Shown here piece after piece: positions 35,354 through 35,533 of a DNA stretch of 64,000 nucleotides. The notes beneath the pieces were generated by a model. It had not been told where the DNA came from, did no database searches, and saw nothing but the letters and a program-made list of their open reading frames with translations. A program made the translations under genes and the position numbers. Position 1 is the first letter of the stretch. Each line of letters begins with the position of its first letter. Source of the DNA: Thermoanaerobaculia bacterium (GTDB taxonomy: Bacteria; Acidobacteriota; Thermoanaerobaculia; Multivoradales; UBA5704); NCBI GenBank assembly GCA_035996875.1, contig DASYJD010000023.1, forward strand, positions 14,293 through 78,292, in the 5' to 3' direction.

Positions 35354-35533
35354 ATGAAGAAGAACGTCAAGAAGCTGTTGCTGTCCAAAGAGACTGTGGC
35401 CTACCTCAGCGGGCCGAAGCTCAGCAACGTCGTTGGGATGGTGTCCCATCCGAACGATTCATGCGGTTGCAACGGCGAGACAAGCAACGGACCGTTCAAC
35501 TGCCTCACTTGTGGCTTGTCCTGCCAATGCTGA
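35354..35533 (+). CDS. putative RiPP/bacteriocin-type precursor peptide (59 aa) with KKLxLxKETV-type leader and Cys-rich core
   Basis: AGGAGA RBS 5 nt upstream. MKKNVKKLLLSKETVAYLSGPKLSNVVGMVSHPNDSCGCNGETSNGPFNCLTCGLSCQC. The leader resembles the MKKxxKKLxLNKETIxxL leaders of the GG-Bacteroidales-type natural product precursors. Six Cys in the last 23 residues. Different frame from the track ORF 35308..35565. Confidence 0.5.
   Translation: MKKNVKKLLLSKETVAYLSGPKLSNVVGMVSHPNDSCGCNGETSNGPFNCLTCGLSCQC

Follow-up and report, generated by a model that had tools for sequence, protein, structure and literature searches.

A putative class I lanthipeptide precursor gene of a Thermoanaerobaculia bacterium, without maturation enzymes in its neighbourhood

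Walker et al. (2020, PMC7268733) described, for Bacteroidetes, class I lanthipeptide precursors (the NF038153 type) that carry an LxLxKx5L motif and a Gly-Gly leader end and are encoded in clusters together with a C39 protease. The PedA15 peptides of Pedobacter lusitanus are a characterised example (PMC12328550). A different organisation is found in the class II prochlorosins and cyanotins, for which many precursor genes are scattered in the genome and their products are processed by one promiscuous synthetase, ProcM (PMC7268733, PMC12328550). From the Thermoanaerobaculia themselves, the Cys-rich lanthipeptide precursors ThaA and TheA have been reported, which go together with LanM and a GMC oxidoreductase and are thiazole-forming (PMC13083261).

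Here we describe a 59-aa peptide encoded in a 64-kb stretch of DNA of a Thermoanaerobaculia bacterium, referred to in the following as the window. The peptide resembles the LxLxKx5L/Gly-Gly precursors in its leader motif and leader length, in an HMM score above the cutoff, and in a Ser/Thr/Cys-rich core with the donors N-terminal to the acceptors; moreover, its close leader relatives are found in lanA-lanC-lanB-lanT(C39) clusters. It differs from them in that lanB, lanC, and lanT are absent near the window gene and near every subfamily member examined, in that its leader ends in Gly-Met instead of Gly-Gly, in that conservation is highest in the core rather than in the leader, and in that the host belongs to the Thermoanaerobaculia instead of the Bacteroidetes. 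With the prochlorosins it shares precursors that lie far from a synthetase and of which several per genome are possible (the sets at loci L004 and L012, and one MAG with precursors on two contigs). However, the prochlorosins have a Nif11-type leader, LanM, and hypervariable cores, whereas here a class I leader is combined with a near-invariant core. ThaA and TheA stem from the same bacterial class and likewise have a Cys-rich core and Gly-Cys motifs, but their leaders are of the class II mersacidin/lichenicidin type and their genes are clustered with the enzymes, whereas the window has neither LanM nor a GMC oxidoreductase. An assignment of the peptide to the ThaA/TheA system was rejected because of the mersacidin-type leader of the latter. 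Finally, the TIGR04149 ("GG-Bacteroidales") precursors, which are partnered with radical-SAM/SPASM enzymes and a peptidase-ABC, have a similar KLxLxKETI-type leader that ends in Gly-Gly and is followed by a small core with Cys, and one orthologue (P0071) reaches the cutoff of that model; the window peptide, in contrast, does not match it and has no radical-SAM partner.

The precursor gene and its conservation

The features of the locus are the following (window positions):

35325..35330, + strand: TAGAAT, 23 nt upstream of the start codon, probable -10 element of a monocistronic unit
35343..35348, + strand: ribosome-binding site AGGAGA, evident in the sequence itself, 5 nt upstream of the start codon
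35354..35440, + strand: leader, residues 1-29, MKKNVKKLLLSKETVAYLSGPKLSNVVGM, with the NF038153 match and the LxLxKx5L motif at L8..L18
35441..35530, + strand: core, residues 30-59, VSHPNDSCGCNGETSNGPFNCLTCGLSCQC, with six Ser/Thr, six Cys, and the motif TSNGPxxC
35577..35611, no strand assigned: 14-bp GC-rich stem-loop that separates the gene from the convergent open reading frame 35648..35950

Translation of 35354..35533 (+), a precursor peptide gene of 59 codons plus a stop codon, yields MKKNVKKLLLSKETVAYLSGPKLSNVVGMVSHPNDSCGCNGETSNGPFNCLTCGLSCQC, exactly the peptide given in the initial annotation, which had also correctly placed an AGGAGA ribosome-binding site in front of it. The C-terminal stretch SCGCNGETSNGPFNCLTCGLSCQC indeed contains the six Cys that had been counted, in 24 residues and not in 23. 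The G+C contents of the three codon positions are 0.42, 0.45, and 0.78, a coding-type pattern in a window of 64% G+C. Therefore, the 85-aa open reading frame 35308..35565 of the ORF track, which overlaps the gene in another frame, is an artefact and not the coding frame. In a word-indexed search, which covered 5.8 billion protein clusters, we retrieved an identical protein, HEV7504435.1 ([quoted passage not shown]), together with two homologues, and later searches added P0071 and P0004. The gene is thus already called and named in GenBank, so that the description as unannotated does not hold for public databases. Its close homologues share 76%, 75% (P0071), 67%, and 64% (P0004) identity with the window peptide. 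A sequence search of the PDB gave only chance matches of the zinc-finger type (E > 2), and the Rfam scan around the locus nothing significant.

DNA was available for codon alignments with three orthologues. The whole-gene dN/dS values were 0.15-0.41, and for codons 35-57 they dropped to 0.03-0.07, at dS values of 0.5-1.5, at which synonymous sites are saturated or nearly so. In accordance with these values, residues 36-58 are near-invariant among the orthologues and the leader is variable. The open reading frame is a real, conserved gene, above chance, and its Cys-rich core is under strong purifying selection. Apart from the gene itself, hardly anything is shared between the loci: tblastx and blastn comparisons with L001, L002, and L136-L141 confined the homology to the gene plus about 12 nt in front of it and 18 nt behind it. 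No neighbour is therefore conserved at these loci, and synteny was discarded as a guide to partner genes. The peptide gene has been kept in at least four unrelated genomic contexts, one orthologue (P0002) being carried on a closed 7.66-Mb chromosome (OY970373.1). At two orthologue loci, a tandem array of a 21-bp unit (17-19 copies, consensus TTGACCCGTGGGTCGCGGTCC, with a near-palindrome) starts at the stop codon of the peptide gene (L001 10180..10572; L136 4288..4642). This array is absent from the window. A 59-aa minus-strand gene call at L001, most of which falls within the array, is probably spurious.

The TAGAAT hexamer recurs 23-27 nt upstream of the start codon at the orthologue loci L001, L002, and L136, that is, in all four copies with DNA including the window, and also at the paralogue loci L009 and L011. 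The hexamer occurs only five times in 128 kb (both strands of the window), and its presence by chance has a probability of about 8e-4 per locus and 20-nt span. A strict sigma-70 scan found no full promoter at the peptide gene; TTGACG at 35308..35313 is just 11 nt away from TAGAAT, so that there is no clear -35 element. GGAG-type ribosome-binding sites are present at the same position in all orthologues. Downstream, the stem-loop at 35577..35611 is a possible two-way terminator or transcript end. It is without a U tract, the terminator scan gave nothing at this site, the fold of the whole 107-nt stretch that includes it is not exceptional (z = -1.7), and it is not conserved in the orthologues. 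Judged by these elements, the peptide gene appears to be a self-contained, self-promoted unit.

The leader and the genes beside its relatives

The best match of the window peptide, and the sole one above threshold, was to the class I lanthipeptide leader model NF038153 (lant_leader_L1a), with a marginal score of 23.0 bits (cutoff 22, E = 6.7e-5) over residues 1-28. The orthologues score 22.7, 25.4, 28.1, and 30.4 bits on the same model, LanAs verified by their context 26-38 bits, and other members of the subfamily defined below 18-21 bits, under the cutoff. At E values up to 10, the NCBIfam scan returned only NF038153 and NF038158, and the Pfam scan no family, including PF28317 (Lant_leader_dom), a domain that is present in some of the more distant leader relatives, for example P0096. 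The motif reads L8-x-L10-x-K12-x5-L18 in the window leader. Its end is G28-M29, at columns where the orthologues have GG, GG, AG, and GG (GG, GA, GS, or AG being usual); the presumed -1 residue of the cleavage site is thus Met in the window copy and not Gly, Ala, or Ser.

The initial annotation had recognised the precursor of a RiPP, with a Cys-rich core behind a KKLxLxKET leader, which is borne out, but had leaned towards the radical-SAM-associated GG and SCIFF families, which is not: NF038153 is above its cutoff and TIGR04149 is not matched. None of the models it had proposed to search matched the window peptide in the NCBIfam scan at E values up to 10, be it GG-Bacteroidales (TIGR04149, GG_sam_targ_CFB) or the SCIFF and ranthipeptide precursor models. 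It had also made its reading depend on conservation, as opposed to a dN/dS of about 1, and in this respect the values of 0.15-0.41 are in its favour. On the orthologues, TIGR04149 scores 25.2 (P0071), 24.3 (P0004), and 22.5 bits (P0003), around its cutoff of 25. However, the model also gives 17.7-24.8 bits for precursors beside LanB/LanC, and therefore the resemblance does not indicate a radical-SAM partner. As far as the sequences tell, the likeness resides in the shared leader only and is uninformative about the enzyme.

To characterise the surroundings of this leader, metagenome contigs were scanned for a DNA pattern encoding KKLxLxKET, and the neighbouring open reading frames in the resulting 120 loci (L016-L135; 531 kb) were clustered, with recurrent families identified by Pfam. 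The most common neighbours were LANC_like proteins (39 loci), Lant_dehydr_N plus Lant_dehydr_C proteins (21 loci), Peptidase_C39-ABC exporters (14 loci), and a methyltransferase (7 loci), and the usual gene order in such clusters is lanA-lanC-lanB-lanT. Among the 24 loci with more than 6 kb of flanking DNA, 17 had at least one of LanB, LanC, and the C39 exporter. Two styles of leader could be told apart. Leaders of the 'xLSKETL' style are beside LanB/LanC in 47 of 62 cases (16 of 19 with at least 5 kb of flank). For the 'MKKxxKKLxLAKETV/L' style, which is typical of the named Thermoanaerobaculia entries, the corresponding numbers are 1 of 38 and 0 of 9. The window leader (SKETV) is intermediate, with 29.5 bits on an HMM built here from LanBC-linked leaders versus 31.9 bits on one built from orphan leaders, and an assignment to either subtype was abandoned because the two models did not separate it. 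An all-against-all clustering of the orphan-type loci (282 kb) revealed no recurrent neighbour family. Over 33 aligned residues, the window leader shares 55% identity with the precursor of L119, which belongs to a cluster of LanC, LanB, and a C39 exporter. Several proteins annotated as LanC in Thermoanaerobaculia MAGs have in turn 53-57% identity with the LanC of L119.

The initial annotation had noted that no maturase is adjacent to the gene, and this holds for the whole 64-kb window, in which LanB, LanC, a C39 exporter, LanM, radical-SAM and SPASM proteins, and a GMC oxidoreductase were all absent in a Pfam scan of all open reading frames of at least 300 aa and most smaller ones, as well as in tblastn searches with LanB, LanC, and exporter references from the metagenomic loci. 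The same is true for the relatives that share the core motif TSNGP. In eight independent contexts (the window and L001, L004/L007, L006, L008, L009, L011, and L142), LanB, LanC, or the exporter was never found within about 10 kb, versus linkage to LanB/LanC at 17 of 24 loci in the leader family as a whole (Fisher p = 6e-4). Radical-SAM genes are absent from the window and from seven of the eight subfamily contexts; the paralogue locus L008 has three of them, 6-10 kb away. Co-location with LanB/LanC is usual, but not obligatory, for membership in the LanA group. The sole unusual aspect is that the TSNGP subfamily, and much of the leader family of the Acidobacteriota, are consistently unlinked from enzymes.

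The window contains only one precursor. In one MAG, two precursors were present on different contigs, and tandem sets of three to seven small precursor-like genes without a nearby enzyme were observed at L012 (7192..8939) and L004 (9604..10186), which represent a Thermoanaerobaculia MAG (DASVAS010000042.1) and an 844-kb metagenome-assembled contig. Another observation concerns LanC: one Thermoanaerobaculia MAG has at least four LanC paralogues (HEX3127756, HEX3129408, HEX3129411, and HEX3130028), two of which share a 33-kb contig and have accession numbers that differ by three. None of the seven LanC accessions recovered from Thermoanaerobaculia falls into the HEV750xxxx range of the MAG of the window.

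The core, its proposed maturation and the alternatives

An exhaustive profile search and a second indexed search delineated a rare subfamily of about 49 sequences from Acidobacteriota, all with the pattern C-x(0-3)-T-S-N-G-P-x-x-C-x(1-3)-C, which is nested in a leader superfamily of at least 669 members. To our knowledge, no member of this subfamily has been characterised. Two hits of the profile search, P0017 and P0053, were discarded as repeat-protein artefacts, and a metagenome scan with a three-sequence alignment found nothing. In the window core, the potential donors are S31, S36, T43, S44, T52, and S56, the potential acceptors are C37, C39, C50, C53, C57, and C59, and every Cys is preceded by its own unused Ser/Thr. 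The same ordering prevails in the relatives: each Cys could be matched to its own upstream Ser/Thr in 171 of 174 cores of the leader family (65 +/- 6 after shuffling, with a maximum of 83), in 48 of 49 cores of the subfamily (shuffled, 17 +/- 3), and in 42 of 46 cores of precursors adjacent to LanB/LanC (shuffled, 16 +/- 3). In all 174 related cores, Ser plus Thr are at least as numerous as Cys. The number of Cys residues is odd in 81 of the 174 family cores and in 19 of the 49 subfamily cores. The orthologues P0003 and P0004 have five Cys each, and in P0003 Ser56 and Cys59 were lost together. Such an ordering fits thioether rings better than disulfides: lanthionine formation demands it, an all-disulfide peptide does not.

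Probably, therefore, to judge from the leader and the core, the gene encodes a class I, LanA-like lanthipeptide precursor whose maturation and export, by LanB, LanC, and a C39 exporter from another part of the genome, take place in trans. In this reading, in which the action in trans, the pairing of the rings, the site of cleavage, and the function are inferred, the gene would be transcribed alone from the TAGAAT promoter, and the N-terminal LxLxKx5L leader would guide the peptide to the distantly encoded dehydratase LanB and cyclase LanC. As many as six residues (S31, S36, T43, S44, T52, and S56) would be dehydrated and joined to C37, C39, C50, C53, C57, and C59 as thioether rings, and a C39-peptidase ABC exporter would remove the leader near G28-M29 and secrete the product. 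Thermoanaerobaculia MAGs do encode class I LanC, with up to four paralogues in one assembly. Because the core is near-invariant and more conserved than the leader, the data suggest a single, specific target or receptor of the mature peptide that is itself conserved.

Several features of the locus could also be read differently. The window peptide contains six Cys, an even number, four conserved Cys surround an Asn-Gly turn (C-x-C-x-TSNGP-x-x-C-x-C), a DsbA-like gene is 8 kb away, and no modifying enzyme is near in any context, all of which would suit an unmodified or disulfide-only bacteriocin or signal with a double-glycine leader, exported by a peptidase-ABC protein, oxidised by Dsb in the periplasm, and folded as a CxC...NG-turn...CxC hairpin. 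An odd number of Cys, as present in about half of the related cores, speaks against a product with disulfide bonds only, as do the five Cys of P0003 and P0004 and the fact that P0003 lost Cys59 along with Ser56 and not along with another Cys. Furthermore, the ordering of Ser/Thr before Cys is far above that in shuffled cores and like that in LanBC-linked precursors, the near-invariant Thr-Ser of TSNGP would have no obvious role in such a hairpin, and DsbA is not conserved near the orthologues. We consider this explanation unlikely. The absence of LanB/LanC beside the subfamily (none of eight contexts) and beside AKET-type leaders (all but one of 38) would also be compatible with another maturase that forms thioethers or crosslinks, be it an undescribed enzyme or, for example, a radical-SAM/SPASM protein of the kind that goes with TIGR04149 or ranthipeptide precursors; only the export-type leader would then be common to this peptide and the lanthipeptides. 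The TIGR04149 scores of P0071, P0004, and P0003 and the three radical-SAM genes at 6-10 kb in the paralogue locus L008 point in the same direction. However, the window peptide itself does not match TIGR04149, a model that cross-matches LanB/LanC-adjacent precursors, the window and seven of the eight subfamily contexts are devoid of radical-SAM genes, and the 282 kb of orphan-type loci have no recurrent neighbour family. In addition, the strict supply of one Ser/Thr per Cys is required by lanthionine chemistry, but not by sactionine or ranthionine links. A maturase of another kind thus seems quite improbable to us.

The missing maturase, the degenerate Gly-Met cleavage site, and the possible gene remnant just upstream (35096..35311, see below) might also mark the gene as an orphan relic that has lost its maturase, or even as a chance open reading frame, without a product of consequence. 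This is very unlikely because of the conservation, with a core dN/dS of 0.03-0.07 (codons 35-57, at dS of 0.5-1.5), the ribosome-binding site, and the promoter, the latter two also being conserved as elements; moreover, the third codon positions are of the coding type, and the gene was kept in at least four unrelated contexts.

Taken by itself, the gene adds one more catalogued, uncharacterised lanthipeptide precursor. Of wider relevance are the hundreds of Acidobacteriota peptides that combine this leader with a lanthipeptide-type ordering of Ser/Thr and Cys and yet are systematically unlinked from LanB/LanC. In analogy to the prochlorosins, such dispersed precursors may be served by one enzyme. 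Tentatively, and with somewhat less than even confidence, we propose that Acidobacteriota, including this bacterium, possess a large dispersed set of stand-alone, self-promoted precursors of the lanthipeptide type that are never clustered with enzymes, and that one or a few LanBC/C39-exporter systems act on them in trans, in a class I analogue of the prochlorosin system, or else a maturase that has escaped recognition. If so, the higher conservation of the TSNGPxxC core compared with the leader would speak for a dedicated role in signalling or at a conserved target rather than for diversifying antibiotic warfare, and the core would be a candidate pharmacophore or signal. Genome mining based on clusters, which considers a few genes on either side of LanC, would miss all of the unlinked precursors, including the whole 'xLAKETV/L' group. 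If one enzyme set indeed matures the precursors in trans, it would be a naturally promiscuous class I system that is useful for peptide engineering.

Further observations in the window

The initial annotation had placed the gene in the company of other small secreted Cys-rich proteins and of a DsbA/DoxX pair. A DsbA-like gene is present at 43401..44084, the DoxX partner could not be confirmed, and the proposed link is not supported, neither the small Cys-rich open reading frames nor DsbA being conserved next to the orthologues. One of the small proteins is the convergent 100-aa open reading frame at 35648..35950 (-), whose N-terminus resembles a signal peptide and whose C-terminus is rich in Cys; it had no family match in Pfam and NCBIfam scans and is not conserved beside the orthologues.

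On the other side of the peptide gene, a 71-aa open reading frame at 35096..35311 (+), with a GC3 of 0.74 (coding type), is situated between a 914-aa BNR-repeat gene and the peptide gene. It had no match in Pfam, NCBIfam, or the PDB. Its stretch FEGRLGRMFRTLPP resembles the N-terminus of bacterial haem-peroxidase-family proteins, and the open reading frame may be a gene remnant. L006, like the window, has a BNR-repeat protein of about 900 aa upstream of its precursor gene; this apparent link was dismissed, as the two proteins share no homology beyond the Asp-box repeats. A domain of about 120 aa without a Pfam model (FYTxxPCRxxDTR ... GCGxP ... NVT ... GYF) is common to a 794-aa window protein (27625..30009, -) and to the genes directly upstream of the paralogous precursors P0072 and P0074 (L006 7224..9923 and L008 8425..9897), with identities of 29-36% and E values from 1e-10 to 4e-18. 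As a partner of the peptide it was rejected, since it occurs in only three of about 30 loci and at inconsistent distances and orientations; probably, it is a common module of secreted proteins.

Farther away, two adjacent giant open reading frames of 1322 and 1792 aa (48711..52679, - and 52711..58089, -) have a coding-type GC3 and no Pfam or NCBIfam match, and a 1213-aa fusion of an ABC-2 permease and an M1 peptidase is encoded nearby on the same strand, at 60318..63959. A 454-aa protein with BtrH_N and DUF4872 domains is encoded at 9592..10956 (-), 25 kb from the peptide gene, and no link between the two was made. At 13423..14853 (+) the window contains the gene for a selenocysteine synthase, SelA (E = 1e-135), and therefore the organism probably makes selenoproteins.
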